This document shows, one piece after another, positions 12,650-26,602 of a stretch of 30,038 bases of DNA (positions within the stretch are counted from its first letter, which is position 1; every line of letters starts with the position of its first letter). This stretch comes from a virus (lineage: Duplodnaviria > Caudoviricetes). A program made the position numbers and the translations under genes. The stretch spans positions 1 to 30,038 of the IMG/VR virus record IMGVR_UViG_3300040811_002370; one strand, written 5' to 3'. The notes beneath the pieces are model-generated. The model did no database searches and was not told the DNA's origin. It saw nothing but the letters and a program-made list of their open reading frames with translations.

Positions 12650-13342
12650 TTAGAGGCCGAACTTTTCACGGCAGATGGGGCCAATCCCCAGCTCAATTGA
12701 CTCTCTATTTGTAAGCTCCCTGCCGCAGCAGGAGCAGCTTCCGGTTTCACGACCGTATCGAACTGCCGCGCTGAGAGGATCAGCGGATGCTGAAACTAGC
12801 GTCTCTTTGACACTATCAGGGATCCGGGAATCCATCCGGGAAGGTGTAACCTTGCCCAAATACTTGGGCTGCAGACCATAATCACCTTCCACCTTTTCAG
12901 TGGCAGACAATACCCAAATAGCGTCGCCTGATTTGTTTAGTTTCAGGATTGCGTCGCTAAAACGCATCGTAAGGCGGCGTGCACCTTTAGCGCGTGCAGC
13001 CATGAAAGGTGCAAATAGGCCAGCAAATTGCGGCTCCTCGCTATCATCCTGCTGCTGCGATTCCTGCTGCAGCAGATCAGTGGCAAGCTTGTGTGCCCAA
13101 GCCAGCTGACGCTCGCTCAGCTGGCGATCGCGAGACTGCTGATACAGCGACCGCGCAAAGCTGCCACGGCAGTACTGCAGGAGGTCCTGCGCGGCATCAT
13201 CGCTCAAACGCGACTGGAAGCTGATCAGCTCGCCGCGAGCGGTCACAGCCATCTCCTGAGGCTCGCGCAGGGAAGCGTGGGCTGCCGCGCGGGCGATGGC
13301 GGCGGTGGCGGTGGCGGTGGCGGTGGCGGTGGCGGTTTGCAT
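12650..13342 (-). CDS. Early protein with C-terminal CxxC/GIGPIC zinc-binding domain (DUF6011-like)
   Basis: YGRETGSCSCCGRELTNRESIELGIGPIC. GC-rich. N-terminal Thr-Ala repeat. Confidence 0.75.
   Translation of the reverse strand: MQTATATATATATAAIARAAAHASLREPQEMAVTARGELISFQSRLSDDAAQDLLQYCRGSFARSLYQQSRDRQLSERQLAWAHKLATDLLQQESQQQDDSEEPQFAGLFAPFMAARAKGARRLTMRFSDAILKLNKSGDAIWVLSATEKVEGDYGLQPKYLGKVTPSRMDSRIPDSVKETLVSASADPLSAAVRYGRETGSCSCCGRELTNRESIELGIGPICREKFGL
13301..13336 (+). repeat. (GGCGGT)6 microsatellite encoding (Thr-Ala)6
   Basis: Six perfect hexamers. Confidence 0.95.
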
Positions 13343-13441
13343 GGGAGGAATCCCTGACGACTCCCATAGTGTAGCGACTGGCCAGCCGCACCGCGAGCCA
13401 GCGTCAGGATCTCGTTACATTCATTTATAATTTTATTTTAT

Positions 13442-13486
13442 GGCAGGGTAAGCGTGGCTTACTTGTCGTCACTGGGCTTCGGACCC
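13442..13486 (-). ncRNA. 45-nt repeat element, copy 0 (inverted)
   Basis: GGGT-CCGAA-GCCC-AGT-GACGA-CAA-GTAAGCCAC-GCTTA-CCCTGCC on minus, with upstream TGG-TAGGAT -10. Confidence 0.6.
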
Positions 13487-13555
13487 TCTGCCGGTTTCAC
13501 CTATCCTACCATGCCAAGGGCGACAGCTGTGGCCGCCCTTGGCATAAAACTTTAA

Positions 13556-13717
13556 CTATTCTTTTTCTGCAAAAGTTTCAACCCTTGCATCATAAGATCC
13601 TAACTCATTATAAAAAGCGATCATACGCTTAGCTTCGCTTATTGTCTTGAATTCTTGGCACTTTCTCTCACCATTGAAGCGAGGATAGGGAGCATTGAAT
13701 GAGATGCGGATTGTCAT
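13556..13717 (-). CDS. Hypothetical protein (53 aa)
   Basis: Start reassigned to MTIRISFNAPY, just after the upstream stop. Confidence 0.7.
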   Translation of the reverse strand: MTIRISFNAPYPRFNGERKCQEFKTISEAKRMIAFYNELGSYDARVETFAEKE

Positions 13718-13725
13718 GATTAACC

Positions 13726-13926
13726 TCAGGCGGATTGCAGGTAGTTTGAGATAGCTTGCAGCATTTGCATTGCTATTCTCAGATCCAAAAGTTCCAGCGG
13801 ATCTGTGCACTGATCTGAGAGAATCTCAAGGTATTCTAGATCAATGGCGATAGATTCCAGCTGATCGCCTACACCTATTCCCAAAACAGGTTGGTGATAG
13901 TCAATGACAGTTTGTGCCCTTTTCAT
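13726..13926 (-). CDS. Hypothetical protein
   Basis: 66 aa, preceded by a pseudoknot-like element. Confidence 0.65.
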   Translation of the reverse strand: MKRAQTVIDYHQPVLGIGVGDQLESIAIDLEYLEILSDQCTDPLELLDLRIAMQMLQAISNYLQSA

Positions 13927-13988
13927 GAGAATCTAAAGCGATGAGATTGTGTGGGGGCTTTATACTCTGCCCCCTGAGAGTTTAGAGG

Positions 13989-14336
13989 TTAGGAGAAGAT
14001 GAAACCTTCCTCGAATTCATGCTCATTATAGACAGGAGTTGTGCCAATCTGCCCAATGTATTTGTGCACAAACCACTTAAAGTTGCGCTGGTAGATACAC
14101 TCTCCTGTGATGCCATTCTCTGCCAGGATTGCATTTAGGCGGCTTTTTGTGGTGTTTGTTTTGTATCCACAGCTATAAACCTCCACATAATTCTCGCCAA
14201 TGGTGGCGATGTGGTTGCCGTGCAGCATCACATAGGATGCCTCCCTTTCAGGAGAATAGATCACCTTAGTGTTGCCGGATTGCCAATCCTTACGATTAAG
14301 GATCGCGTCATTCATGGCAGCTTCGATCTTACGCAT
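13989..14336 (-). CDS. Conserved cyanophage-type early hypothetical protein
   Basis: MRKIE..M..AI, LHGNHIA and TTKSRLNAIL motifs. Confidence 0.8.
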   Translation of the reverse strand: MRKIEAAMNDAILNRKDWQSGNTKVIYSPEREASYVMLHGNHIATIGENYVEVYSCGYKTNTTKSRLNAILAENGITGECIYQRNFKWFVHKYIGQIGTTPVYNEHEFEEGFIFS

Positions 14337-14483
14337 TGGAGGGATTGCGTTTGCTCCGCTAACCTACAGCCGCTGCAGCAGCCGGAACCACCGTCTTGTG
14401 CCACTTGCCAAGCTGACCCAATTTGGCCAGAATCCGCCCCATTGGCCAGCCGATGCTGTAGAATAAGAGCAACAACAAGGGGA

Positions 14484-14528
14484 GGCTCCGAAGGCCGATG
14501 ACGACAAGTAAGCCACGCTAACCCTGCC
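14484..14528 (+). ncRNA. 45-nt repeat element, copy 1
   Basis: GGCT-CCGAA-GGCC-GAT-GACGA-CAA-GTAAGCCAC-GCTAA-CCCTGCC. -10 TAGAAT at 14459. Confidence 0.65.
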
Positions 14529-14552
14529 ATAAAATAATTAAGTAATTAAAAT

Positions 14553-14584
14553 AAAAAAAAGTTCACAATAAGAATTGTGAACTT
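14553..14584 (-). terminator. Intrinsic terminator
   Basis: GTTCACAAT-aaga-ATTGTGAAC stem with T8 tail on minus. Confidence 0.75.
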
Positions 14585-14601
14585 CTTAAGTGTAAAGAAT
14601 G

Positions 14602-14910
14602 TCAGCAAGTATAGGTGCCGACAATTACACTCTGGCAGGAATCTACGATCTTGACAAGTAGTCCAGCACTAGCGTACCAACTGTGCATCCCCTGCCAACC
14701 TTTCACCAGTAGATCACCAGAATGGATTCGAGTAAAGTCTGAAAGACAATAGGTTTGCCCTTTATAGTTGAAGAACATTGCGCAGTCGAACTCCTCATCA
14801 CTAAGGTAGTCGTACTCCTCGCGCAGTTCTTTATAGTTTGCGGTCGGCAGCTCGAAAGCTGAGATGAGATCGCGCGGCTGGTTGTTGGTGGTGATCTGAA
14901 GGGTGGACAT
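14602..14910 (-). CDS. Hypothetical early protein
   Basis: Start reassigned to MSTLQITTNNQPR, just downstream of the module promoter. Confidence 0.75.
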   Translation of the reverse strand: MSTLQITTNNQPRDLISAFELPTANYKELREEYDYLSDEEFDCAMFFNYKGQTYCLSDFTRIHSGDLLVKGWQGMHSWYASAGLLVKIVDSCQSVIVGTYTC

Positions 14911-15102
14911 CGGATCGGTTCCGAACGACCCCCATACAGTAACCCAATGGAATCGGTAGGTCAAGCATCCAACGGCATCCGACCCATAATTATACGAAAT
15001 ACGAAAAAGTTAAACGATAAAAAATACTTATTGAAAAATTCCTGTGGGAGCCCACCATACCGGCATCCAGCGTGGTAGACTATTCTCACAAGCAAAGAGG
15101 GA

Positions 15103-15147
15103 GGCTCCGAAGGCCGATGACGAAAGGTAAGCCACGCTAACCCTGCC
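15103..15147 (+). ncRNA. 45-nt repeat element, copy 2
   Basis: Matches consensus. TGG-TAGACT extended -10 at 15073-15081. Confidence 0.65.
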
Positions 15148-15171
15148 ATAAAATAATTGAATAATAAGAAT

Positions 15172-15194
15172 AAAAAAGGATCCGAAGATCCTTT
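15172..15194 (-). terminator. Intrinsic terminator
   Basis: AAAGGATC-cgaa-GATCCTTT with T tail on minus (UUCG loop). Confidence 0.75.
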
Positions 15195-15202
15195 GTAATT
15201 TT

Positions 15203-15385
15203 TTATGAAAATTGATTCATTACATCTTTTTCCATAAGATACAAAGATTCTTGATTCCAACGATCAATAATCATGTTTCCTTGGGAATCAAACAACTCAA
15301 AGAACCAGTAATAATAAAGATGCTTATTTGTTTGTGAAAGGTTATAGAAAGCGAGTGAAATGTTGTCCAAAAGCTCTTTGTTCAT
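15203..15385 (-). CDS. Hypothetical early protein
   Basis: Start reassigned to MNKELLD, after the TACTCT -10 and GGGAGTCG leader. Confidence 0.7.
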   Translation of the reverse strand: MNKELLDNISLAFYNLSQTNKHLYYYWFFELFDSQGNMIIDRWNQESLYLMEKDVMNQFS

Positions 15386-15536
15386 GGGTGAAATCCCTTT
15401 CGACTCCCATAGAGTAGCAGTCACCAATGCCTTCTGTCTATGGGGTCTTGTGCCAGTGGTGGAACTGGTTTTTTCTGGCCTGAATCGGTCGCAATGGGAT
15501 GCTGGTGTGGTAGACTATAGGGACAAGAGAAGAGGA

Positions 15537-15581
15537 GGCCACGAAGGCTGATGACGATAAGTAAGCCACGCTAATCCTGCC
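15537..15581 (+). ncRNA. 45-nt repeat element, copy 3
   Basis: GGCC-ACGAA-GGCT stem variant. TGG-TAGACT -10 at 15508-15516. Confidence 0.65.
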
Positions 15582-15693
15582 ATAAAATACCAAAGAAAAA
15601 AACGAAAAACGAAATTAAAAAAACGAAAAATTATAATTTTATGAAAAATGTAGAGGAGCCTGTGATACCTTTGCACAGGCTCCTTATACTACA

Positions 15694-15912
15694 TCAGAGG
15701 CTGAACATCTCCAAGAACAGATCACCTAGCGGTTGCTGCTTAGGTTCTGGCAGCACGGAAGCGTAGCAGACGCCAACAGCACGAGCGTGTTCCCAGATCT
15801 CAATAGTGCCAACACCGATGACGGTGCCATCCTTTGAGATCTCGTTGGTAACGGTGCGGTAGGGAGTGCCTTTGACCCACTTGCGAGTCGGATCAGGGAT
15901 AATGGCGGCCAT
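15694..15912 (-). CDS. Hypothetical early protein
   Basis: Start reassigned to MAAIIPDP. TATAAT -10 on minus near 15938-15943. Confidence 0.65.
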   Translation of the reverse strand: MAAIIPDPTRKWVKGTPYRTVTNEISKDGTVIGVGTIEIWEHARAVGVCYASVLPEPKQQPLGDLFLEMFSL

Positions 15913-16096
15913 GGGGGTGTCTTGCGTTGACTCTGTAATTATAGCGCCTTCCTGGGGCTTCTGGGAGGCTTCTGGTGAGGTTTCCGTCCGGTTCTGCGAT
16001 TGGCACAAGACCTTGGAAGAATACGAAAAAACGAAAAAAAGATCCAGAGAATACAAAAAATCTCTGGATCTTATGGGAGCCTGTGATACTGACAAA

Positions 16097-16234
16097 CTAG
16101 CGTAAGATCCTATGCCTTACATCAACGAAAGGTTGGATTTCATAAGACTTAAAGAACCAAATGTGTCCATTGGTATCTTTGAAAGTCCAGTACAGTTCTT
16201 TGGTTCTTATGTCAAATGTCTGCACAATCTCCAT
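16097..16234 (-). CDS. Small hypothetical protein (45 aa)
   Basis: Hand translation MEIVQTFDIRTKELYWTFKDTNGHIWFFKSYEIQPFVDVRHRILR. TGATG overlap with upstream ORF. Confidence 0.55.
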   Translation of the reverse strand: MEIVQTFDIRTKELYWTFKDTNGHIWFFKSYEIQPFVDVRHRILR

Positions 16235-16362
16235 CAACAAGACTCCGTAACTTTACAGATGAGTTCTGCTGCTTTTATGTCAGCAGATTTGGCGGATTTA
16301 ATGCTTGCTACTACACTATTGCCAAAGATGACAATGGCGAACATAAGGACAAAGATTCTCAT
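16234..16362 (-). CDS. Small membrane or secreted protein (42 aa)
   Basis: Hand translation MRIFVLMFAIVIFGNSVVASIKSAKSADIKAAELICKVTESC. Follows a pseudoknot-like element. Confidence 0.6.
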   Translation of the reverse strand: MRIFVLMFAIVIFGNSVVASIKSAKSADIKAAELICKVTESC

Positions 16363-16419
16363 GATAAAAGAAAGCAAGTTGGTTAGGGTAGTTTTATGAC
16401 ATACCCTAGGTCTTGTTAA

Positions 16420-16902
16420 TCAGAACAGACCTTCAGCAACAAGACGATCATAAAGAACAGCAGCTAATGCACCACAATGGGGGCAAGCTTTTGCGTATTT
16501 GATCTCAGATTTGAGGCTGTATTGTTGAGGAGAATTGTGATGCTTGCTATAGATGAACTTATAACGATGGACAGCAGAAACAAGCTTAAGCAGTTGGCGC
16601 TTGTCCAGATCTTCTCCAGCCATCTTATAGATGGGGATGAAGAATCGGTAGTCTTTAATCGCATTGCAGCGATTCAGGCGATCAACAATAGCCTTGGCAC
16701 CAGCACCACCGAAGTAAGGTGTCAGCTCTACCATCAGGAACGCCGAGAAAGGCGCGAGAGAAGCCTTGCCGGTGGTGCTAGGCTGTACGGTCACAGATGC
16801 AGCCTGAAGCTGCTGCAGAGCTTCCTGGAGAGTGCTGAGGCTATCTGCCATCGTGGCCAGCTGGCTGGTGATGGACTGAAGCTCGGTCTGGAAAGGTTGC
16901 AT
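16420..16902 (-). CDS. Hypothetical early protein, N-terminal coiled coil and CPHCG motif
   Basis: Start reassigned to MQPFQTEL, downstream of the TATCTT -10. Confidence 0.7.
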   Translation of the reverse strand: MQPFQTELQSITSQLATMADSLSTLQEALQQLQAASVTVQPSTTGKASLAPFSAFLMVELTPYFGGAGAKAIVDRLNRCNAIKDYRFFIPIYKMAGEDLDKRQLLKLVSAVHRYKFIYSKHHNSPQQYSLKSEIKYAKACPHCGALAAVLYDRLVAEGLF

Positions 16903-17041
16903 GGGGCGTGATTGCCTCGACTCCTTAAAGATACCAGCCACGATCGGCAGCGGTCTATCGGTCTTGTGCCGGTTCTGGAACTGGTTGCCGCGGCCACAGC
17001 TGGGTCTGATGGCTGCTAGAATTATGACAACAACCAGGGGA

Positions 17042-17086
17042 GGCTAAGAAGGCCGATGACGAACAGTAAGCCACAGTCACCCTGCC
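17042..17086 (+). ncRNA. 45-nt repeat element, copy 4
   Basis: GGCT-AAGAA-GGCC variant. TGC-TAGAAT -10 at 17014-17022. Confidence 0.65.
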
Positions 17087-17110
17087 ATGAAATAATAAGA
17101 AGAAAATAAT

Positions 17111-17133
17111 AAAAAAAGGGCGAAGATCGCCCT
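17111..17133 (-). terminator. Intrinsic terminator
   Basis: AGGGCGA-aga-TCGCCCT with T7 tail on minus. Confidence 0.75.
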
Positions 17134-17142
17134 CTAAATGTA

Positions 17143-17628
17143 TCAAATGTTGCGGAAGAAGTAGTTGTCTTCCTCCCAGTAATCGTACCGCAATGCACTA
17201 TCCCAGGTTGCCTGATAATCTATAACAATCCAGCTCGGCAGGTTATGATCTCCGAACTGAGCGATCATCTCCTCGGTAAAGTCTGCTTCCGAATCGAATT
17301 CGCCTTCATAAGCTTCCTCGAAATCATCGAAGTTGCCGATGTTTTCATAATAAATCTCCACAGCTTTCTGCGGATAATTCTCACAAAGTTCCTGGAACTT
17401 CTCCTCTTCTTCCTCACTATCGAAATCCAGATCAGTCTCTACATCTTCCCATTCTGCTTTTGGCAATCCATTGGGATACTTTGCTGCCAGAAGATTCTCA
17501 TAGAAAGCAACATAAGCAGCCTTGCCATCTTCCTTGATGTAACCACAAGCAAGCACGATGGCCGTCTTGGTGGCGTTGCTCTTGGTGAGCTTGTCAACAG
17601 TAGCGAGGAGTTCGGTTCCGGTGAGCAT
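17143..17628 (-). CDS. Fusion of cyanobacterial AbrB-like N-terminal domain and ArdA-like acidic anti-restriction domain
   Basis: MLTGTELLATV...KTAIVLACGY....G....AFYENLLAAK resembles the cyAbrB N-terminus. FEEAYEGEFDSEADF.EE...LPSWIVIDYQATW...YFFR resembles the ArdA C-terminus. Confidence 0.7.
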   Translation of the reverse strand: MLTGTELLATVDKLTKSNATKTAIVLACGYIKEDGKAAYVAFYENLLAAKYPNGLPKAEWEDVETDLDFDSEEEEEKFQELCENYPQKAVEIYYENIGNFDDFEEAYEGEFDSEADFTEEMIAQFGDHNLPSWIVIDYQATWDSALRYDYWEEDNYFFRNI

Positions 17629-17779
17629 TGCTCTGTTCCGTTTGGGACTCACCCATAATGGGTCAGGATCGGCAGCAGGTACAGCCGCATTGTGCAGGTT
17701 GTGGAACTGGCTGGATCTGACCAGGATCCGCCACAATGGCCAGCTGATACGCTAGACTACTAGCAACAAGAGAAGAGGA

Positions 17780-17824
17780 GAGCACGAAGCTCGATGACGA
17801 ACAGTAAGCCACGCTAACCCTGCC
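17780..17824 (+). ncRNA. 45-nt repeat element, copy 5
   Basis: GAGC-ACGAA-GCTC compensatory stem. TAGACT -10 at 17753. Confidence 0.65.
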
Positions 17825-17848
17825 TTGAAATAATAAGGTATTAAGAAT

Positions 17849-17871
17849 AAAAAAGGATCATAAGATCCTTT
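17849..17871 (-). terminator. Intrinsic terminator
   Basis: AAAGGATC-ataa-GATCCTTT, same stem as at 15172. Confidence 0.7.
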
Positions 17872-17885
17872 GTATTTGTATTGAA

Positions 17886-18071
17886 TTACAATTCGATGAG
17901 GTCTGGATATTGTTCCTGCACCACAGCGATCAATTCTTCATCAGTATAATATGATGAATAAGTTTCTTCCAGATGATCACCCACAATTCTCATAAGATCT
18001 TTGGTGCTCATGTTTTTGACAATACGATCAACATAATCAGAGATGAGTTGGCTGCGGTTGAAGTCAGACAT
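17886..18071 (-). CDS. Small acidic early protein
   Basis: Start reassigned to MSDFNRSQLISDYVDRIV, after the TATCTT -10. Confidence 0.75.
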   Translation of the reverse strand: MSDFNRSQLISDYVDRIVKNMSTKDLMRIVGDHLEETYSSYYTDEELIAVVQEQYPDLIEL

Positions 18072-18216
18072 GGTGGGGTGGAATCCCTTTCGACTTCCAT
18101 AAGATACAGCGGATCTCAGAGCCACACAAGAGACCTTGTGCCACCAAAACCACTGGCACACCACTGCCCCCATAAGGTCGTTCTGGGTCTTGTAGTTGTA
18201 TCAACAACAGGGGAGA

Positions 18217-18261
18217 GGCTAAGAAGGCCGATGACGACAAGTAAGCCACAACAATCCTGCC
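18217..18261 (+). ncRNA. 45-nt repeat element, copy 6
   Basis: Matches consensus. Weaker -10 (TGTAGT) at about 18191. Confidence 0.6.
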
Positions 18262-18377
18262 ATAAAATACCAACAAAAAAAAAACGAAAAACGAAATTAA
18301 AAAAACGATTTTTTATATTTTTTATGAAAATCTACAGGAGCCAGTGATACCTTCTCACCAGCTCCTTATACTGTATC

Positions 18378-18695
18378 TTATGGACGCCAGACATCAGGGA
18401 AGACATCTTTAATGTAATTCTTCACATATTCTTGTTCTTCTGCTGTGTCCAGTTCTTCATAATAATCCCACCATGCCTCACTAATGAACCACATCTCATT
18501 AGGATCAAAACTACCCACACCATGCTGATAGTCACCATCACGCTCAATGTGCCATTCTCTCTCGAAGATAGAATCTTCTATTGAATGTGCAACTCCTATG
18601 TAAGATTTACGATCATAAGAATTATGGTTCACAAACTTCATGCACTGATCCACAAACTGTTGACCAAGTTCATCCAGGTGAGTGATGGTAGGCAT
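18378..18695 (-). CDS. Acidic hypothetical protein
   Basis: 105 aa ORF. Confidence 0.7.
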   Translation of the reverse strand: MPTITHLDELGQQFVDQCMKFVNHNSYDRKSYIGVAHSIEDSIFEREWHIERDGDYQHGVGSFDPNEMWFISEAWWDYYEELDTAEEQEYVKNYIKDVFPDVWRP

Positions 18696-18801
18696 GATCG
18701 AAAAAAACGAAAAACGGAATTAAAAAAACGAAAATTAACAAAAATTGTTAATTTCTGTGGGAGCCAGTGAAACCGGCTCACCAGCCCATCATACCACAGA
18801 C

Positions 18802-19008
18802 TCAGTTCAGAATGTGACGATAATCAATGAACTTAACGCACCAACCATAGGCACAGGTAATCTCTTCGACAAGATCCTCCTCATCATCTGCCTCCCAGAT
18901 TTGACCAAGAACCTCATCATAGATCTCATCTTGTGATTCGACATCAAGTGCCTCATCATCAAGATCATCAGTGAAGTCAAACTCGATTTCAGTGACTTGG
19001 AACTGCAT
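18802..19008 (-). CDS. Highly acidic small early protein
   Basis: VTEIEFDF...WEADDEEDLVEEITCAYGWCV..IDY. Own promoter and palindrome at 19069. Confidence 0.8.
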   Translation of the reverse strand: MQFQVTEIEFDFTDDLDDEALDVESQDEIYDEVLGQIWEADDEEDLVEEITCAYGWCVKFIDYRHILN

Positions 19009-19078
19009 GGGTGATGTCCCGTAAACAATGGTAGTATTGCAGGGATCTCATGAGAACACAAGATCCCTTGTGACAGTT

Positions 19079-19354
19079 CTAGAACTGGGTGGTTTTTATG
19101 ATCTCCTCTGCAAGATCATTACCTACAACACCAGCGATGAACTCTTGTGTGGAATCATCATCCTCACCTTCTGCAACCCAAATATCTTCGATCAACATTG
19201 CAACATCAGTATCACTTTGGCCAGGATTTTTGTCAAAGGATTGCATCATCATCTGCATTGCATAAGAGAACAAATCATCTGCCTCCATGTTATCAATAAC
19301 TCGATAACAATGTGCAGTCAGCAGATCGGAAACTTGTTCAGAAGTGAGAGCCAT
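19079..19354 (-). CDS. Acidic early protein, likely paralog of 17886-18071
   Basis: Start reassigned to MALTSEQV. Shares R(I/V)(V/I).NM...DL. Confidence 0.7.
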   Translation of the reverse strand: MALTSEQVSDLLTAHCYRVIDNMEADDLFSYAMQMMMQSFDKNPGQSDTDVAMLIEDIWVAEGEDDDSTQEFIAGVVGNDLAEEIIKTTQF

Positions 19355-19494
19355 GAGAAGAAATGTCCTCGACCCCCATAAGATACCAACACCACCAGCA
19401 CCACACCAGCCAGCTTGTGCCAGTGGTTGTTCTGTCCCATCAGCGCCACACCAGCTGGATCTCATGCCTTATGATAGTATCAACAACAAGGGGA

Positions 19495-19539
19495 GAGCAC
19501 GAAGCTCGATGACGAACAGTAAGCCACGCTAACCCTGCC
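19495..19539 (+). ncRNA. 45-nt repeat element, copy 7
   Basis: Core identical to copy 5. TATGAT -10 at 19470. Confidence 0.65.
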
Positions 19540-19563
19540 ATGAAATAGTTAAGTATTAAGAAT

Positions 19564-19585
19564 AAAAAAAGGGATTGCTCCCTTT
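19564..19585 (-). terminator. Intrinsic terminator
   Basis: AAAGGGA-ttgc-TCCCTTT (GCAA loop on minus) with T tail. Confidence 0.7.
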
Positions 19586-19591
19586 ATTATA

Positions 19592-19801
19592 TCATAATGC
19601 AATCTCTACCCAATAACAATCAGGAGCTTCTTCATCTTGATAACTTGTAACAAGACCTTTTGTAATCAGTTGTCCCAGAACTCCAGCTGTAACATGATCA
19701 TTATTGAAAGGTGTGATCTCATGTAACCAACCACACCCAGGTTGATCCATTCCCTCTTTGATAGAATCCAGAAGCTGTTGTTCCTTATCAGTCAGAGTCA
19801 T
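19592..19801 (-). CDS. Hypothetical early protein, possible winged-helix
   Basis: LTDKEQQLL...GVLGQLITKGLV pattern. Confidence 0.7.
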   Translation of the reverse strand: MTLTDKEQQLLDSIKEGMDQPGCGWLHEITPFNNDHVTAGVLGQLITKGLVTSYQDEEAPDCYWVEIAL

Positions 19802-19938
19802 GAGAAGAATCTCTTTCGACTCTCATAAGATACATCAGGATCCAATGCCAGTAAAGCAGTCTTGTGCCAGTGATTCTTCTGGCACATCATGTGTCCCATA
19901 AGGTGCTGTGGGTCTTATGATAGTATCAAATCAAACGA

Positions 19939-19983
19939 GGCTAAGAAGGCCGATGACGACAAGTAAGCCACAGTCACCCTACC
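19939..19983 (+). ncRNA. 45-nt repeat element, copy 8
   Basis: Consensus except final CCCTACC. TATGAT -10 at 19916. Confidence 0.65.
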
Positions 19984-20077
19984 AAAAAATACGAAAAACG
20001 AAAATAAAAAATCAAAAAATCATAAAAATTAAAAAATCTTATGGGAGCCTGACATACCATCAGACTCCCTAATACTA

Positions 20078-20446
20078 TCACACACCTAGGTAAAAATCAT
20101 CACGATTCCCATACATCAGGTGATACCATTGTTCTTCTGTCTCTACTTCTACCTCACGATGTTGTTCATCTAGTTCTACATCATAAAGTCCACCACGCTC
20201 ACCAGCATCCACTGCCTCATGATAAGGTGCATTGAGTTCACGATACACATGATCCACTGCAATCTTGTAAGCTTTATCTACTGCATCAGCCCACACATAA
20301 AACCTATCAGTCTCAATAGTATTCTCCTGGATATTGTATGCTTTCCAGGTTTGGAAGCAATAACGAAATGCCGTTTGATCCTTATACTTGAAAGTATCAG
20401 TGCCGATCAGCTCGATACCACCAAGACCAAAATACTTTTGAGCCAT
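20078..20446 (-). CDS. Hypothetical early protein
   Basis: 122 aa, CTTCTCATG start context shared with neighbouring modules. Confidence 0.75.
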   Translation of the reverse strand: MAQKYFGLGGIELIGTDTFKYKDQTAFRYCFQTWKAYNIQENTIETDRFYVWADAVDKAYKIAVDHVYRELNAPYHEAVDAGERGGLYDVELDEQHREVEVETEEQWYHLMYGNRDDFYLGV

Positions 20447-20588
20447 GAGAAGAAAACGGATTTCCGACTTATTCAGAATACATCAGATCTCACCAGAAAA
20501 ACCACCTGTCAGCCAGTTAAACGACTGTCCACTGTCTGGCTCATGAGGTGCCATGGGGTCTTATGATTATGGAACAAGAGAAGAGAGA

Positions 20589-20633
20589 GGCTAAGAAGGC
20601 CAGAGACGATAAGTAAGCCACAGTCATCCTGCC
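20589..20633 (+). ncRNA. 45-nt repeat element, copy 9
   Basis: AGA linker variant. TATGAT -10 at 20562. Confidence 0.65.
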
Positions 20634-20657
20634 TTGAAATAATTAAGTATAAACAAA

Positions 20658-21158
20658 TTAACTAATAAGTTTATATCCTTTACATGTTGTATTAGGATTT
20701 CGCAAAGTTTTTAACATTGTGCCAGATGATGGATGATTCAGTGTTTCACGACACCATTTAGTTAAATTTCTAATTTCAATTATCTCCCCAGTTGGAGTTT
20801 GAATCAAACGAGTTTTTGCTTGAGAATACTCTACATTGTCAGCGTTGCTCATCCATTCTAAATTTTCGACTCTATTATCAGTTTTATCCTGGTTAATGTG
20901 ATTAACTGTATCGTAATTATGAGGATTTGCAATGTAAGTTTCAGCAACTAATCTATGAATACTAGTATTTTTTACTCTATTCGTATTTTGTTCTAGTATA
21001 ATTTTCAAGTATCCTTTGCGATCTAGTTGTGGTTTTAATTCTCTTTTATATGAATAATCAAGAACTTTACCTTTGCCGTGACCACCTGGTTTTTTATGAG
21101 AGAATACTCTACCATCAGTTGTGATAGAGTATTCTGGGTAATTCGGAATTTGTTTCAT
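20658..21158 (-). CDS. HNH homing endonuclease (NUMOD4-like N-terminus)
   Basis: IPNYPEYSITTDGRVFS, HRLVAETYIANP and VNHINQDKTDNRVENLEW. Confidence 0.92.
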   Translation of the reverse strand: MKQIPNYPEYSITTDGRVFSHKKPGGHGKGKVLDYSYKRELKPQLDRKGYLKIILEQNTNRVKNTSIHRLVAETYIANPHNYDTVNHINQDKTDNRVENLEWMSNADNVEYSQAKTRLIQTPTGEIIEIRNLTKWCRETLNHPSSGTMLKTLRNPNTTCKGYKLIS

Positions 21159-21210
21159 GTGATTGGGACTAAACTACTTCTATTTATACATAATTCAGTC
21201 CCAATCACAT
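21157..21210 (-). promoter_or_regulatory. Late promoter TATAAATA (21181-21188) inside a 14-bp start-occluding hairpin
   Basis: ATGTGATTGGGACT (21157-21170) and AGTCCCAATCACAT (21197-21210) form a perfect inverted repeat. Confidence 0.85.
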
Positions 21211-21214
21211 TTTA

Positions 21215-21604
21215 CTATCTTTTATATAACCAGCTGCCAGACCAGTCCGCTCTACGATAACATTGCTCACGAGACACTGGATCAAGAAGATTAAATCTCT
21301 CTCCTTTCGCAGGACTACGCCATGATGCTGATTTTAATACTGAACCAGTTTGTTTGTCCACAAAGCAATGTACACTCTTTGATCCTTTTGCGTTCATAAT
21401 GACCTTATAGTATTTTCTGCCCTCTTCGATCTCATAAGAATAGCCAAAATCATAAGTACCATCCGCAATCTCTTGCAGACAACGATTATGATAATCCATG
21501 TTAATTTCGCGTCTCACTGACTCTCTGTGGCTCCTGGTTGAGTACAGTCGGAAGTCAGTCTCCAGTGCATCACAGAGAGAACGGACATAACCAAGGACTT
21601 GCAT
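21215..21604 (-). CDS. Conserved phage hypothetical protein
   Basis: GRKYYKV...SVHCFVDKQTG.VLK.ASW..PAK motif. Start reassigned to MQVLGY. Confidence 0.8.
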   Translation of the reverse strand: MQVLGYVRSLCDALETDFRLYSTRSHRESVRREINMDYHNRCLQEIADGTYDFGYSYEIEEGRKYYKVIMNAKGSKSVHCFVDKQTGSVLKSASWRSPAKGERFNLLDPVSREQCYRRADWSGSWLYKR

Positions 21605-21744
21605 GAGAAGAAAACGGAATCTCAACAATCAAAATATACCTGAAAAATCCTGCGAAAAATCCTGTAGTGGCCAGTTAAACGACTGGCACAGAGCACCCAC
21701 ATACAGTCTCATGAGGCACTAGACTATAAGAACAAGAGAACAGA

Positions 21745-21789
21745 GGCTAAGAAGGCCAGCGACGATAAGTAAGCCACAGTCATCCTGCC
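21745..21789 (+). ncRNA. 45-nt repeat element, copy 10
   Basis: AGC linker variant. TAGACT -10 at 21720. Confidence 0.65.
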
Positions 21790-22050
21790 TTGAAATAATC
21801 GTTACATAAGAATCTTATATATTTAATATTCTTATGAGTCGGATAAGTATCTGATATATCTGATATATTTGAATGTTTTATGAATTGGGGTGGAAACGAT
21901 AAGTACTTGTGATATTTGCGATCCTTATGGGTCGGTGTGGGTCTTATGATTCTTATGCGACTGTGCCACTATTTTTTGTGTCCGCGCCTGTGTGATAAAA
22001 AAGCGTGCGCGTGCTATAATGGGTCGGCTTAAATGGCAAGGTCTCATAAG

Positions 22051-22118
22051 GATTAAATGGTATTAAATGGTATTAAATGGGATTAAATGGGATTAAATGG
22101 GATTAAATGGTATTAAAT
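22051..22118 (+). repeat. Tandem 10-mer (G/T)ATTAAATGG x6 plus partial copy
   Basis: Direct reading. Confidence 0.95.
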
Positions 22119-22120
22119 AA

Positions 22121-22320
22121 CATAAGAAAGAAAAAAACATCATAAGATCTCATAAGCACATAAAAAAGAAAAAAACATCATAAGATCTCATAAGCACATA
22201 AAAAAGAAAAAAACATCATAAGATCTCATAAGCACATAAGAAAGAAAAAAAAACATCATAAGAACAAAAGAAAGAAAAAAACACCATAAGATCTCATAGG
22301 GTAAAAAACATAAGAATTCA
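22121..22320 (+). repeat. 38-bp tandem repeat (3 near-identical plus degenerate units), rich in CATAAG and A tracts
   Basis: CATAAGATCTCATAAGCACATAA at 22141, 22179 and 22217. Confidence 0.9.
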
Positions 22321-22612: not shown

Positions 22613-23809
22613 CTATTGATTTTCTAGACGCTTCACAGCAGACGCTAAATGATGATTGTCACCATTTAGTCTTACTTCCGCTCCACATCCGTAATCGACA
22701 TACTCTGCCGATGAAAGTTCTTGAGAAGTTAGATTTCTCCAACCTTCCTTAAGAATATTGATAGAGGCATTAAGATCTCTATCGTGTTTAGAACCACAAG
22801 AAGGACAAGTCCATTCTCTTATTGAGAGAGACATCTTATCTTCTTTATGTCCGCAAGAACTACAAGTTTTACTTGAAGGAAAGAAACGGTCAATCTTGAT
22901 CAACATTTTTCCATACCAGTTGCACTTGTACTCCAACATAGTAACAAAAGTAGACCATCCTGCATCACTAATGGACTTCGCTAGTTTGTGGTTCTTTAAC
23001 ATACAAGAAACATTTAAGTCCTCAAGAACTATGAGATCAAATGTATTCACTATGGCAGTTGATACATTATGAAGAAAATAAGTTCTTGAATTGACGATAT
23101 TTTCGTGAACTTTGGCAACTTTAATGCGTTGCTTGTTATAGCGATTACTACCTTTGGTTTTACGACTTAAATGTTTTTGGTGCTTCTTAAGTTTAGATTG
23201 GTTCTCTCTAAACCATTTTGGATTGTTAATGACTTGTCCATTGGAAAGAATAAACAAGTCCTTCAAACCCAAATCAATACCTACAACTTTACCAGTTGAG
23301 GGTATTGGATTGAGTTCTTGTTTTACAAGTATAGAAACAAAATATTTTCCTGTAGGAGTTTTAGAAACAGTTATGCTCCTAAAATCGACATCATCGGGAA
23401 TAGGTCTATCAAGAACAACTTCAACAAAACCAATTTTTTCGAGCCTTACCAAAGAATTTTCTTGATCCAATTTAAACTTTTGATTTGGCAACCTAAAAGA
23501 TTGTCTATTAGATTTTTTCTTAAAAGAAGGTCTTCCAAGTTTAACTTTTCGTTTTTTGTTAAAGTATTGTTTCTTGAACTCAATAAAGTCATTTCTTTTT
23601 TGTTGAAGAGTTGAAGCAGAAACTTCTTTTAAGAATCCAAACTCTTCCTGTTCTTTGAGTGTTTTTTCTGTTAATATGACACCATCATTATTATTGAAGT
23701 TTTCGACAAGTTTGTTCCATACAAAACGAACACAACCAAAAGTTTTATTGAGTAAAACTTCTTGTTCTTTTGTAGGATAAATCCTATACTTGTATGCTTT
23801 TAAGTGCAT
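22613..23809 (-). CDS. tnpB: TnpB RNA-guided endonuclease (IS200/IS605 or IS607 OrfB), no tnpA adjacent
   Basis: KAYKYRIYP...FGCVRFVWN N-terminus, RuvC GIDLG / VLEDL / DRDLNA, Zn finger CSSC..CPSC. Confidence 0.95.
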   Translation of the reverse strand: MHLKAYKYRIYPTKEQEVLLNKTFGCVRFVWNKLVENFNNNDGVILTEKTLKEQEEFGFLKEVSASTLQQKRNDFIEFKKQYFNKKRKVKLGRPSFKKKSNRQSFRLPNQKFKLDQENSLVRLEKIGFVEVVLDRPIPDDVDFRSITVSKTPTGKYFVSILVKQELNPIPSTGKVVGIDLGLKDLFILSNGQVINNPKWFRENQSKLKKHQKHLSRKTKGSNRYNKQRIKVAKVHENIVNSRTYFLHNVSTAIVNTFDLIVLEDLNVSCMLKNHKLAKSISDAGWSTFVTMLEYKCNWYGKMLIKIDRFFPSSKTCSSCGHKEDKMSLSIREWTCPSCGSKHDRDLNASINILKEGWRNLTSQELSSAEYVDYGCGAEVRLNGDNHHLASAVKRLENQ

Positions 23810-23919: not shown

Positions 23920-24441
23920 TCAAGAATATTTACCAACAAGATACCAAACATAATCATCAGGAGCATCACCTAGATCTGTTTCTGGTGTTTCGGAATAATG
24001 ACCGAATTTCTTTAGTTTTTGTCCTGCTACATCATTATCACAAACAGCTATAATTGGACGATTTAGTGAAAGAAGAAAGTTAATATAGTCTTTTGGTGGA
24101 TCGTTAGTTAGTGTGGCCAATGCAGAGAAGTTTAGACTTGTCATTCTTGCTGCATCAAAGACACCTTCTGTCAGGAATACTGGTTTGTATGGTGAATTAA
24201 GACTCTCAGTACCCCATAAGGTTACAGTGGGATAATGTTTGTTTCTGTAGGTGTAATACTTGGAATGGAGTTTATCCTGAAAAATCGTTTTTGAACCATT
24301 GGGATTATAGAACTGATAACCAGTTAATTGTCCTGATAAGTTGTATAAAAGAAAAGTAGCTGTGTTGGTTGTTTCGTCAATAATTGTTGGGTGGAGATTT
24401 GTGTTAAGATGCCTTTGTTTTAGGTGGGTTTTGATGTTCAT
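23920..24441 (-). CDS. Toprim-domain (primase-like) protein
   Basis: VFLTEGVFDA and AVCDNDVAG motifs. No Zn-binding domain seen. Confidence 0.8.
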   Translation of the reverse strand: MNIKTHLKQRHLNTNLHPTIIDETTNTATFLLYNLSGQLTGYQFYNPNGSKTIFQDKLHSKYYTYRNKHYPTVTLWGTESLNSPYKPVFLTEGVFDAARMTSLNFSALATLTNDPPKDYINFLLSLNRPIIAVCDNDVAGQKLKKFGHYSETPETDLGDAPDDYVWYLVGKYS

Positions 24442-24670
24442 AATTCTTCATAAGAACCAAACGACGCATAAGTTCTGTTGAATTTGGGTTTTTTGCTACG
24501 CAATAACGAACATTACCATACTTATCAGTTGCTAGAACCTTTAGAGCCTCTGGTGGTGTGTTTGGGTTTGTTGCTACCCAATAACGAACCTCCCAATCCT
24601 CATCAGTTGCAAGAACTTCTAATAGTTCTGGTGGTGTGTTTGGGTTTTTTGCTAGTTTATTTTTGTTCAT
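24404..24670 (-). CDS. LRV/HEAT-like repeat protein
   Basis: A.NPNTPPE.L.VLATD....VR repeats. Confidence 0.75.
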   Translation of the reverse strand: MNKNKLAKNPNTPPELLEVLATDEDWEVRYWVATNPNTPPEALKVLATDKYGNVRYCVAKNPNSTELMRRLVLMKNYEHQNPPKTKAS

Positions 24671-24848
24671 TGTTCAGAAGAATAGAAACAAAATTGTTCA
24701 GTTGTTCTCTACAAAAAAATGCAGTGAGAATAAGATCAACTCCAACTAATGCAAGGAAAATATTAAGATTTTGACCAGAAATTAACCAGAAGATTCCAAG
24801 TTCAATGATCTGAGAAATGAAGAATGTGATAATAAGATTTGTTTTCAT
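24657..24848 (-). CDS. Small membrane protein
   Basis: Two hydrophobic segments. Overlaps both neighbours. Confidence 0.6.
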   Translation of the reverse strand: MKTNLIITFFISQIIELGIFWLISGQNLNIFLALVGVDLILTAFFCREQLNNFVSILLNNEQK

Positions 24849-25003
24849 GAGAAATAGTTCATAAGAAACAAACGACGAATGAGTTCTGTTGCATTTGGGT
24901 TTTGTGCTGCCTCATGACGAACAGTCCAATCCTCATCAGTTGCTAGAACTTCTAGAACTTCTGGTGGTGTGTTTGGGTTTCGTGCTAGTTCAATTTTGTT
25001 CAT
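24845..25003 (-). CDS. Short LRV repeat protein (52 aa)
   Basis: Hand translation MNKIELARNPNTPPEVLEVLATDEDWTVRHEAAQNPNATELIRRLFLMNYFS. Confidence 0.7.
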   Translation of the reverse strand: MNKIELARNPNTPPEVLEVLATDEDWTVRHEAAQNPNATELIRRLFLMNYFS

Positions 25004-25631
25004 AATTCTTCATAAGAACCAAACGACGCATAAGTTCTGTTGAATTTGGGTTTTTTGCTACGCAATAACGAACATTACCATACTTATCAGTTGCTAGAAC
25101 CTTTAGAGCCTCTGGTGGTGTGTTTGGGTTTGTTGCTACCCAATAACGAACCTCCCAATCCTCATCAGTTGCTAAAACTTCTAGAACTTCTGGTGGTGTG
25201 TTTGGGTTTTGTGTTACGCAATAACGAACACAAGCATCCTCATCAGTTGCTAGAACTTCTAGAACTTCTTGTGGTGTGTTTAGGTTTCGTGCTGCCCCAT
25301 AACGAACCCCAGAATTCTTATCAGTCGCAAGAACTTCTAGAACTTCTTGTGGTGTGTTTGGGTTTGATGCTACATAAAAACGAACATTCCAATTCTTATC
25401 AGTCGCAAGAACTTTTAATAGTTCTGGTGGTGTGTTTGGGTTTCGTGCTACCCCATAACGAACCCCAGAATTCTTATCAATCGCAAGAACATTTAGAGCC
25501 TCTGGTGGTGTGTTTGGGTTTTTTGCTAGTTTAACTTTTTCATCAAAAGAAAGACTAGAAACATCAGGAGTTTCAACTTCCTTAAGAACCTCAAGGACAA
25601 TAGAGGAAATTTGTTCTGGTGTGTAGTTCAT
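24990..25631 (-). CDS. LRV/HEAT-like repeat protein (six full 26-aa repeats)
   Basis: Start reassigned to MNYTPEQ, downstream of TATAAT (25656-25661, minus). Confidence 0.85.
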   Translation of the reverse strand: MNYTPEQISSIVLEVLKEVETPDVSSLSFDEKVKLAKNPNTPPEALNVLAIDKNSGVRYGVARNPNTPPELLKVLATDKNWNVRFYVASNPNTPQEVLEVLATDKNSGVRYGAARNLNTPQEVLEVLATDEDACVRYCVTQNPNTPPEVLEVLATDEDWEVRYWVATNPNTPPEALKVLATDKYGNVRYCVAKNPNSTELMRRLVLMKNYEQN

Positions 25632-25714
25632 TTGGGGTTGGTTGCTTATGAAGTCATTATAAAGCAAAGCACCACCCCTGAGAAGAGGTGATGTGACAGT
25701 TTTTTGGGTGTCCA

Positions 25715-26602
25715 TTATGCTAGGGTGAATCCTTTGTATGAACTAATTTTTCCTCTTATGAGTTCATGAATACCAGAGATAGCAATTTTTCTATCTTCTC
25801 TCGTGTAATTTCTACAAAATCGACTTATGTTTGTCTCATGGACGATTTCACCTTCTGGGGTTTTTATAGTGAAATTCACATAAAATTTCAATTCGGTATC
25901 TGGGAGGTGGAATCCATAATGATGGCATATTTTTCGATCCAGAACTTTAACAAATGAGGTTTTAATCAGATTATGTTCCCTGCAAAATTGATCAATATCA
26001 TCACCAGTAAAAACTTCACCTTCTGCTGATACCACAGTAAATTCTCTTCTTGTTTTTTCTCGATATTCTTCTGGTGTGAGCAATCTTCTTTTTGATGTGT
26101 CTATTCCATTACTTTTCTGGAATGAAGCTAATCCTCTTGCACTTGAAATAAATCCTGTTTCCAGACAAATGTACTTCAATTCTGATATTTGCCGAAGATG
26201 TCCCGATTCTACATTCGTTCTTCCGCCTAACAATCCGCCTCTTCTTGATATTTCATGATTTGGATCGAAACATCCTGTTCCATTCTTCTTATGAGTTTCG
26301 GCAGCTTTCTTGCCAGCTTTTTTATATTGTTCTAATGAAACAAATCCTCCAACATTTTCATTAAGACACCATTTTTCGTTTAGGAATGGCTTGATCAATC
26401 TTTTTTCGATTTCATATGCCTCGTGTCGAGTGGAAAATAATCGCAATATTTGCTTCTTTGGAGTGTAAAGTTCCCATGCCCATTTATTTGTTTTGGGAGA
26501 ACCCCAATATTCTTCGTCAAATACTTTTTCTAGGTGCATACCATAATAGTAATATGGTACTTCCTCGAATGTGATTTTATACACATAAATGCGTGGTTGC
26601 AT
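25715..26602 (-). CDS. GIY-YIG-like (Seg-type) homing endonuclease
   Basis: IYVYKITF...YYYYGMH, YWGS, EIE..LI and CLNEN, plus two C-terminal F..../EGE../I..FCR repeats. Start reassigned to MQPRIY. Confidence 0.8.
   Translation of the reverse strand: MQPRIYVYKITFEEVPYYYYGMHLEKVFDEEYWGSPKTNKWAWELYTPKKQILRLFSTRHEAYEIEKRLIKPFLNEKWCLNENVGGFVSLEQYKKAGKKAAETHKKNGTGCFDPNHEISRRGGLLGGRTNVESGHLRQISELKYICLETGFISSARGLASFQKSNGIDTSKRRLLTPEEYREKTRREFTVVSAEGEVFTGDDIDQFCREHNLIKTSFVKVLDRKICHHYGFHLPDTELKFYVNFTIKTPEGEIVHETNISRFCRNYTREDRKIAISGIHELIRGKISSYKGFTLA

Follow-up and report, generated by a model that had tools for sequence, protein, structure and literature searches.

A repeated, promoter-linked element in the early region of T4-like cyanophages is very probably a small RNA, with a putative decoy function

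Why should a cyanophage carry the same 45-nt element eleven times among its small early genes, and is what it conserves an RNA or a stretch of DNA? The question is raised by the IMG/VR virus record IMGVR_UViG_3300040811_002370 (Duplodnaviria; Caudoviricetes), the whole of which was analyzed here (30,038 nt, hereafter the window); this record of 30 kb is estimated to be 14% complete, and the copies lie in the variable early region of a T4-like cyanophage (Kyanoviridae). We find that the element belongs to a real, conserved, and uncatalogued family of promoter-linked structured elements of T4-like cyanophages, of which the form in the window, here called type A, is one amplified subtype (6 to 11 copies per genome) in a family that usually has 1 to 3 copies. 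Judged from its sequence, the element is very probably a small RNA that lies within cassettes resembling the PeSLs of T4-type phages, and its function as a decoy is putative.

A search of the window with the pattern GAA-N7-GACGA-N3-GTAAGCCAC returned 11 matches, 10 on the plus strand and 1 on the minus strand, compared to 0 in each of 100 dinucleotide shuffles, and these are the coordinates and strands at which a preliminary description had placed eleven copies. Copy 1 (13442 to 13486, minus strand) has the type A core, lies upstream of the DUF6011 gene, and is the only copy co-oriented with the genes; its predicted -10 box, TAGGAT, is at 13503 to 13508 on the same strand. The remaining copies are all on the plus strand and, as had been claimed, antisense to the genes that flank them. 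With their predicted -10 boxes, also on the plus strand, they are copy 2 (14484 to 14528; TAGAAT, 14459 to 14464), copy 3 (15103 to 15147; TAGACT, 15076 to 15081), copy 4 (15537 to 15581; TAGACT, 15511 to 15516), copy 5 (17042 to 17086; TG-extended TAGAAT, 17017 to 17022), copy 6 (17780 to 17824; TAGACT, 17753 to 17758), copy 7 (18217 to 18261), copy 8 (19495 to 19539; TATGAT, 19470 to 19475), copy 9 (19939 to 19983; TATGAT, 19916 to 19921), copy 10 (20589 to 20633; TATGAT, 20562 to 20567), and copy 11 (21745 to 21789; TAGACT, 21720 to 21725). The preliminary description gave every copy a -10 box; a TAnnnT hexamer does lie 16 to 21 nt upstream of ten of them, but copy 7 has degenerate forms only (TGTAGT/TAGTTG). 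The consensus proposed earlier fits all 11 copies, and the four stem variants and the restriction of non-Watson-Crick pairs to G-U on the reported strand were also recovered. The fixed length of 45 nt without indels holds throughout the window but breaks down in relatives, where the spacer after GACGA, to which length variation among type A is confined, has 2 nt in seven distinct sequences (three at L054, and L088, L093, L237, and L417) and 4 nt in one (L370). The conserved unit is somewhat longer than 45 nt, since it takes in a GA immediately before the stem and an AAATA at +49 to +53, and RNAalifold predicted from the 11 copies a 4-bp hairpin only, two of whose pairs change on both sides.

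Homologues of type A allowed the hairpin, its strand, and its promoter to be assessed more broadly. The exact pattern occurs in 45 stretches from 12 IMG/VR contigs, including one with the window's full set of 11 copies; two half-relaxed patterns gave a few further variants and a looser one gave 118 stretches in metagenomes, while a blastn search with a type A copy against 50,697 phage records returned A/T-tail noise only. Across 200 distinct type A sequences, pairs 2-12 and 3-11 never depart from Watson-Crick pairing while they switch A-U/G-C and G-C/C-G, and the same sequences share 20 invariant columns, many of them fixed by the search pattern, although A-1 and G1 are not. Among 70 diverse copies, 100% of the stem cells are paired, compared to 82% after shuffling (0 of 500 shuffles as high) and 19 to 50% when the stem is slid, and we regard this first hairpin as established. 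The pairing is also strand specific: 836 of 836 type A stem cells pair on the reported strand versus 733 on the other, and the counts for the related type B (see below) are 90 of 90 versus 71. A TAnnnT hexamer lies 14 to 22 nt upstream of 209 of the 210 type A sequences (19% in shuffles), at 19 to 21 nt in 168 of these, and 130 have a TG-extended -10 box (1% in shuffles); on the other strand, 139 TAnnnT hexamers were counted and not one TG-extended box. Type B has an upstream TAnnnT in 67 of 67 sequences, and positions -12 to -1 before the type A stem are almost free of T. The covariation, the G-U strand asymmetry, and the tightly spaced TG-extended -10 boxes lend good support to the earlier proposal of a promoter-driven small RNA on the reported strand, and we are fairly confident that the element is transcribed at all. 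Identity between random copies is 0.89 to 0.98 in the invariant blocks, 0.55 to 0.68 in the linkers, and 0.29 to 0.47 in the flanks; almost every combination of leader, stem, linker, and tail types is represented (Cramer's V, 0.07 to 0.32), as expected from exchange between copies.

The family extends well beyond type A, which is present in 4 of the 62 loci around relatives of the Gp96 gene. A type A covariance model and a hidden Markov model gave weaker matches in other relatives, and these led to types B and D, in which a -10 box and an A-rich leader precede a 5- to 6-bp hairpin with an RRGGUA-type loop, then GACGA or UGA, and a 3' part consisting of UCG-Y-CAC, five variable bases, C-W-G-C, and an A/U tail. 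The type B pattern matched at least 124 loci (39 of 64 parts scanned), with 66 distinct sequences having the upstream hairpin and the remaining loci being mostly chance matches in coding DNA. In 72 aligned sequences of the wider family the stem is 100% paired, two-sided changes occur at four of its five pairs, and 62 of the sequences have G-U as the first pair. With a type B model, 20 of 56 Gp96 loci, a set that includes many short fragments, yielded members at E < 1e-4; the same model scored 10 of the 11 window copies at E values of 0.011 to 3.3 and all 11 copies of the matching record, which links types A and B. As an independent test, a search with the diverged 3' box alone found a hairpin 14 to 24 nt upstream in 40 of 65 matches, versus 1 of 33 chance matches. 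All types have in common a promoter and leader, a single hairpin, and a box of the form G-N-Y-A-C, N5 (N7 in type A), C-W-G-C, N6, ATA; the conserved box first spelled as GTAAGCCAC holds in type A and is that subtype's spelling of this looser box.

Twenty cultured cyanophages, picked by hand, were tested, and 5 of them contain members of the family, which lie without exception in the early region and share one relative orientation. P-SSM2 has one intergenic, antisense copy behind TG-N-TATAAT; this phage was in the training set of the third model, and the evidence for it is its E value of 0.003 from the second model together with its anatomy. One copy is found in S-SSM7 (E = 0.04), six in B3 (E = 5e-12 to 0.4), two in S-SRM01, and one in DSL-LC03. 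The family ranges over marine and freshwater T4-like cyanophages of Prochlorococcus and Synechococcus. A match in S-CAM9 (E = 0.22) lies inside a baseplate gene and was treated as chance. S-B05 carries an antisense -10 box and a GGGUA-loop hairpin just upstream of a glycosyltransferase gene (L442, 15972, minus strand), which went unscored by the models and may be a more diverged relative.

Around the hairpin, the element resembles a kink-turn in part. As in the kink-turn consensus, GA stands directly 5' of the stem, the first pair is G-C or G-U, and a 3-nt linker, usually with a purine first, is followed by GA. GA on both sides is present in 202 of 210 type A sequences, where the 3' GA is part of the search pattern and the 5' GA is not, and in 19 of 29 distinct box-only sequences, where neither side is forced. 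Unlike a kink-turn, the element has no Watson-Crick helix past the G-A pairs (of 210 sequences, 65 can pair at 19/-3 and 39 at 20/-4), the motif is absent in type D and some B3 copies, and the same bases are used by alternative weak pairings. Types B and D may form a further short hairpin, with three pairs that are 97.7% paired, and type A may form one in two registers, with pairs 16-32, 17-31, and 19-29 being 97.1% paired; none of these pairs shows a two-sided change, and the hairpin is absent from the short copies of B3.

Several other candidates were considered and rejected. A closing helix between the leader and CCUGC forms in the inverted copy and is not conserved, and a hammerhead, brought to mind by a CUGAUGA-like word in type B, lacks the downstream GAAA. 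Positions 15 to 17 read ATG, GTG, or TTG in 199 of 210 type A sequences, with a 7-codon frame in 113, but a small protein gene was rejected in that the frames run to 7 to 23 codons with invariant third positions and nonsynonymous variable sites, and types B and D have no start codon. Pairing as an antisense RNA to the phage's early mRNAs gave a mean duplex energy of -17.4 kcal/mol over 11 by 11 pairs, compared to -17.1 kcal/mol for shuffled RNA and -18.2 kcal/mol for shuffled targets.

The genomic setting is that of an early-gene cluster (12650 to 21628, minus strand), with baseplate wedge genes to its left; most of its small genes have a separate promoter, placed back to back with that of an element. 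The small, minus-strand genes that flank the copies encode DUF6011, Kyano_Gp96, two DUF7326 proteins, an ArdA-like anti-restriction protein, an HNH endonuclease, and DUF7717; a scan for tRNA and tmRNA genes in the window returned none. Nine plus-strand copies lie 138 to 193 nt from the start codon of the left-hand gene, whose predicted promoter points away from them, and face the 3' end of the right-hand gene. Copy 5 is convergent with the ArdA-like gene (17143 to 17628, minus strand; PHROG 36653, E = 1.4e-8, with tblastn matches to annotated Synechococcus phage antirestriction proteins) and copy 10 with the HNH endonuclease gene, and copy 11 stands at the head of the cluster. Terminator-like hairpins follow five copies within about 30 to 45 nt, those after copies 2 (14556 to 14587), 5 (17115 to 17135), and 8 (19568 to 19585) being called on the minus strand and those after copies 3 (15175 to 15194) and 6 (17852 to 17871) on both strands. 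Copies 4, 7, and 9 have a second class of tail, made of phased A-tract repeats (family D7) that occur at 15593, 18275, 18698, 19982, and 22389; the tract at 18698 stands without an element, which suggests bent-DNA modules. As in the window, all copies are confined to one region in three longer relatives. The relative G001 (133 kb, 68% complete) has the same element and encodes psbA, psbD, gnd, PstS, PhoH, and T4-like core genes, and a comparison of 117 of its 172 open reading frames with PHROGs gave the standard set of a T4-like cyanophage, including a RegA-type repressor.

Further features of this neighborhood were noted in passing. The nearest isolate relatives of the ArdA-like protein are in small Synechococcus phages of 42 to 47 kb and not in T4-like isolates. 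The early-gene promoters (13342 to 21640, minus strand) share a -10 box followed 5 to 8 nt on by GTCG, and the early-gene leaders are short, with a pyrimidine run before the ATG and mostly no Shine-Dalgarno sequence, much as in relatives that lack type A. Palindromes of the TGTGCCA/TGGCACA type (repeat families D9 and D10) stand between back-to-back promoters at 14396, 15444, 16960, 17686, 19064, and 19858; they may correspond to an early-promoter motif of Syn9, in whose transcriptome early-promoter palindromes are reportedly described. The cluster is headed by a long noncoding stretch (22040 to 22300) with seven tandem 10-mers and then 30- to 38-nt repeats (families D4 and D6), and it adjoins an IS605-type TnpB gene (Cas12f1-like TNB, OrfB_IS605; 22613 to 23809, minus strand). 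Beyond that, three adjacent proteins made of 26-residue repeats (family D1) are encoded at 24404 to 25715 on the minus strand. The DUF6011 protein (12650 to 13342, minus strand) has an N-terminal Thr-Ala dipeptide run that stems from a hexamer repeat, and locus L271 has a long 6-mer tandem repeat in the region matching this gene. In G001, nrdA is split around a GIY-YIG-type endonuclease gene (L420, 15201 to 18739) and psbA is interrupted ahead of an endonuclease gene (L422, 12598 to 14818).

What might such an element do? We propose, tentatively and at somewhat less than an even chance for the reading as a whole, that it specifies an early, independently transcribed RNA of about 100 nt that serves as a decoy for a conserved host protein. 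Each copy would be transcribed into one ~100-nt RNA from a predicted host sigma-70 promoter that stands back to back with the early-gene promoter, probably starting at the A about 13 to 14 nt before the stem. The RNA would begin with a U-poor, unstructured leader, continue into the hairpin, likely with a kink-turn-like tandem G-A at its base, and then expose the unpaired box described above to be read by a protein, and its 3' end would form at the shared terminator hairpin or by trimming. Through its hairpin and 3' box, the RNA would bind a host RNA-binding protein or ribonuclease that is conserved, and so titrate it, during the first minutes of infection. Copy number would set the dose, with 1 to 3 copies in most lineages and 6 to 11 in the window lineage and B3; recombination of the kind described for PeSLs, between repeats of the promoter-terminator cassette, would increase the number of copies.

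Each part of this proposal leans on particular observations. No two copies in the window have the same neighboring gene, and the neighbors also differ among isolates; one copy is inverted, and genomes with a single copy retain it, all of which suggests that the RNA acts in trans. Short invariant blocks split by variable linkers of fixed length, with no excess pairing to early leaders, point to a protein rather than an RNA as the partner. No clade-specific RNA-binding family was found among the open reading frames of G001 compared with PHROGs, which, incomplete as that genome is, would favor a host factor conserved from Prochlorococcus to freshwater Synechococcus. The anti-restriction gene in the early region and the amplification to 6 to 11 copies in two lineages fit a dose-dependent decoy. 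A bolder generalization, which we consider doubtful, is that T4-like cyanophages from those of ocean Prochlorococcus to those of lake Synechococcus share an early small RNA that would disarm a conserved cyanobacterial RNA-surveillance or anti-phage protein by mimicry, its dose tuned by 1 to 11 copies.

A number of results weigh against the decoy proposal. Transcription of the element is a prediction from sequence, and G-T pairing cannot separate an RNA from a displaced single strand of DNA. The type A covariation rests on three stem haplotypes and so on few independent events, and the 4-bp stem is the minimum-energy fold in only two of five window copies folded singly, which would suggest a fold stabilized by its partner. 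Tails have a nearby hairpin in 106 of 204 cases and a U-tract on the element strand in 60 of 204, so that many transcripts may run into the upstream gene. The PHROG scan of G001 yielded no partner protein, and a search of 185,579 prokaryote genomes with the strict pattern gave a single match, which lacks the stem, and hence no host counterpart. A psbD search of plasmids returned no record from picocyanobacteria. Finally, no credible match was found in 15 of the 20 cultured cyanophages (Syn9, S-CRM01, S-PM2, S-SCSM1, Bellamy, ACG-2014f, S-B05, S-SM2, P-TIM68, S-SKS1, DSL-LC02, S-T4, SynMITS9220M01, Sf-FS3, and S-CAM9), so that the element is either dispensable there or too diverged.

The alternative that survives best, though we consider it unlikely, is that the element acts in cis: divergent transcription would present a nascent hairpin and box that signal to RNA polymerase or an RNase, and antisense RNA or interference would tune or insulate the neighboring early genes, making the element a PeSL with an added antisense module. 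Such a module would fit the placement of the copies, which lie between early-region genes in every case and, in nearly every case, run antisense toward a gene's 3' end. Terminators and promoter regions are shared with the genes, and about half of the tails have no terminator-like hairpin nearby. PeSLs are, moreover, documented promoter-terminator cassettes of T4-type phages in the main text of their description (PMC2839356). Antisense or interference effects, however, need neither an invariant box nor a covarying hairpin, each type A genome has one inverted copy, and 1 to 3 copies suffice in most lineages for many early genes.

Pairing in trans with a conserved host RNA (an mRNA, tRNA, or regulatory RNA) through the unpaired 3' box appears improbable. 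Box positions 19, 39, and 44 vary mainly between C and U, and position 27 mainly between A and G, changes that wobble pairing would tolerate; but transitions are the commonest change anyway, and the invariant blocks are just 4 to 5 nt long and split by variable linkers. With the translation-initiation regions of the window's early genes, the element pairs no better than shuffles do (8 of 40 and 35 of 40 shuffles being as strong).

About as improbable is a role through an R-loop, in which the transcript would prime, or would open a hairpin of single-stranded DNA for, the initiation of replication or recombination, like the origins of T4, which consist of a promoter and an unwinding element. The predicted transcript is suitably purine-rich and U-poor (A+G 62%, U 12%) and is followed by an AT-rich tract, the G-T pairs are equally possible on a displaced plus strand of DNA, and the copies cluster in one region. 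Set against this, the element lacks both a long G-run and an extended unwinding element, its copy number ranges from 1 to 11, and many relatives without the element replicate alike; the conservation of the loop and box at a fixed distance from the start site fits contact between RNA and protein as well.

That the element is a duplex DNA site, for a phage or host regulator or as a bipartite decoy of the restriction type, with the hairpin incidental, is very improbable. Its three blocks do recur at intervals of about 10 nt, the spacers between them varying in sequence but not in length; the early-promoter palindromes contain a similar G-N-C-A-C core, and an anti-restriction gene lies in the cluster. 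Compensatory changes and a G-U asymmetry confined to one strand would nonetheless be unexpected in duplex DNA, the spacing is constant relative to the -10 box of the element and not to the gene promoter, and the hairpin accompanies the box in the majority of box-only matches reported above. A repeat that is neutral or selfish, its copies homogenized by gene conversion in duplicated cassettes, would account for the free exchange of parts between copies but is scarcely credible, being already largely refuted by the position-specific conservation and facing a family that persists as single copies in distant marine and freshwater phages.

The decoy proposal matters for what it would say about infection. 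Most early genes of cyanophages have no known function, and the takeover by these phages of hosts with few known defense systems is poorly understood; if the bolder generalization is true, the partner would reveal a defense or RNA-control factor of the most abundant phototrophs. Dispersed, separately promoted copies would be an unusual dose mechanism for a phage RNA. The occurrence of the family in cultured, tractable phages (P-SSM2, S-SSM7, B3, S-SRM01, and DSL-LC03) makes it directly testable.

How, then, does the element compare with known systems? The preliminary description recognized no known RNA family, and Rfam 15 agrees, with no match near the cutoff for the window, one copy region, 11 excised 59-nt copies, 11 type B loci, or 15 further diverged loci; the nearest score was that of PhotoRC-I, 15.8 bits against a cutoff of 45, on the opposite strand of 1 of the 11 copies. 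No description of the element was found in the full-text literature, a search outside which most subscription papers fall. Supplementary files 3 to 6 of a paper on 10,000 candidate viral RNAs (PMC10690425) contain none of the terms looked for, the files likely to hold alignments lying outside that search, and the accessible text of PMC3037559 and PMC2518516 mentions nothing like it. The cyanophage noncoding RNAs abiF, wcaG, manA, glnA, PhotoRC-II, and CfrI, according to the accessible text of their descriptions (PMC9964418, PMC12197685, and PMC10665884), are likewise structured noncoding elements in T4-like cyanophage genomes, but they are cis-regulatory or single-locus elements near metabolic genes rather than antisense in the early region, and the element has no Rfam match to them.

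The surrounding cassette has its closest counterpart in the PeSLs of the T4-type phages RB49 and phi1, which the main text of Arbiol et al. (2010; PMC2839356) describes as a terminator, a promoter, and a Shine-Dalgarno sequence for the downstream gene. Shared with them are a repeated intergenic sigma-70 promoter, a terminator hairpin, an AT-rich tract, small genes of unknown function, and a variable early region; by prediction, the cassette too is made of a promoter and a terminator that flank small genes in a variable region. Exchange by recombination, likely in PeSLs, where it goes with gene shuffling and mini-circles, may be a further likeness, given that almost every combination of element parts is found here. 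The element itself differs, being an additional, oppositely oriented unit that is also kept as 1 or 2 copies without an array, and its 4- to 5-bp hairpin, distinct from that of the terminator, lies 13 to 14 nt after a promoter that points away from the gene. The accessible text of PMC2839356 describes no divergent second promoter or conserved noncoding unit, and the words "cyanophage" and "antisense" are absent from its main text.

Two resemblances to known RNAs were examined and rejected. The 3' strand of the cobalamin riboswitch (RF00174) has short words in common with type A, as seen in the Rfam consensus and in the Thermoanaerobacter tengcongensis sequence given in the accessible text of PMC9911696, but the excised copies gave no match to it even with truncated matches allowed, and model R3 scored a true riboswitch at 9.4 bits (E = 8.6). 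Two RNase P loci share a stretch on the scale of 14 nt with type A in the P9-P11 region of RNase P RNA, but the family model gave 0 matches at E ≤ 10 among 23 RNase P RNA loci with filters off, no locus being known as cyanobacterial. The element has no partner strands for either RNA, and both resemblances fade in types B and D. The 23 viral-contig loci with RNase P RNA-like sequences (L604 to L626) were noted in their own right, nine of them on contigs of 100 to 500 kb.

For the putative decoy RNA, the relevant comparison is with the pseudo-ToxI repeats of phage phiTE and with RNA anti-CRISPRs (Racr), short promoter-driven and sometimes amplified noncoding RNAs that occupy a host protein. These mimic a recognizable host RNA, the pseudoknot of a type III antitoxin or a CRISPR repeat, whereas the element has no such match in Rfam. 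It also differs from them in having no supported pseudoknot, in its dispersed copies with one promoter each, and in hosts that range from Prochlorococcus to freshwater Synechococcus. We have not filed the element with these systems because no mimicked host RNA was identified, but, of the systems compared here, they are what it most likely works like.

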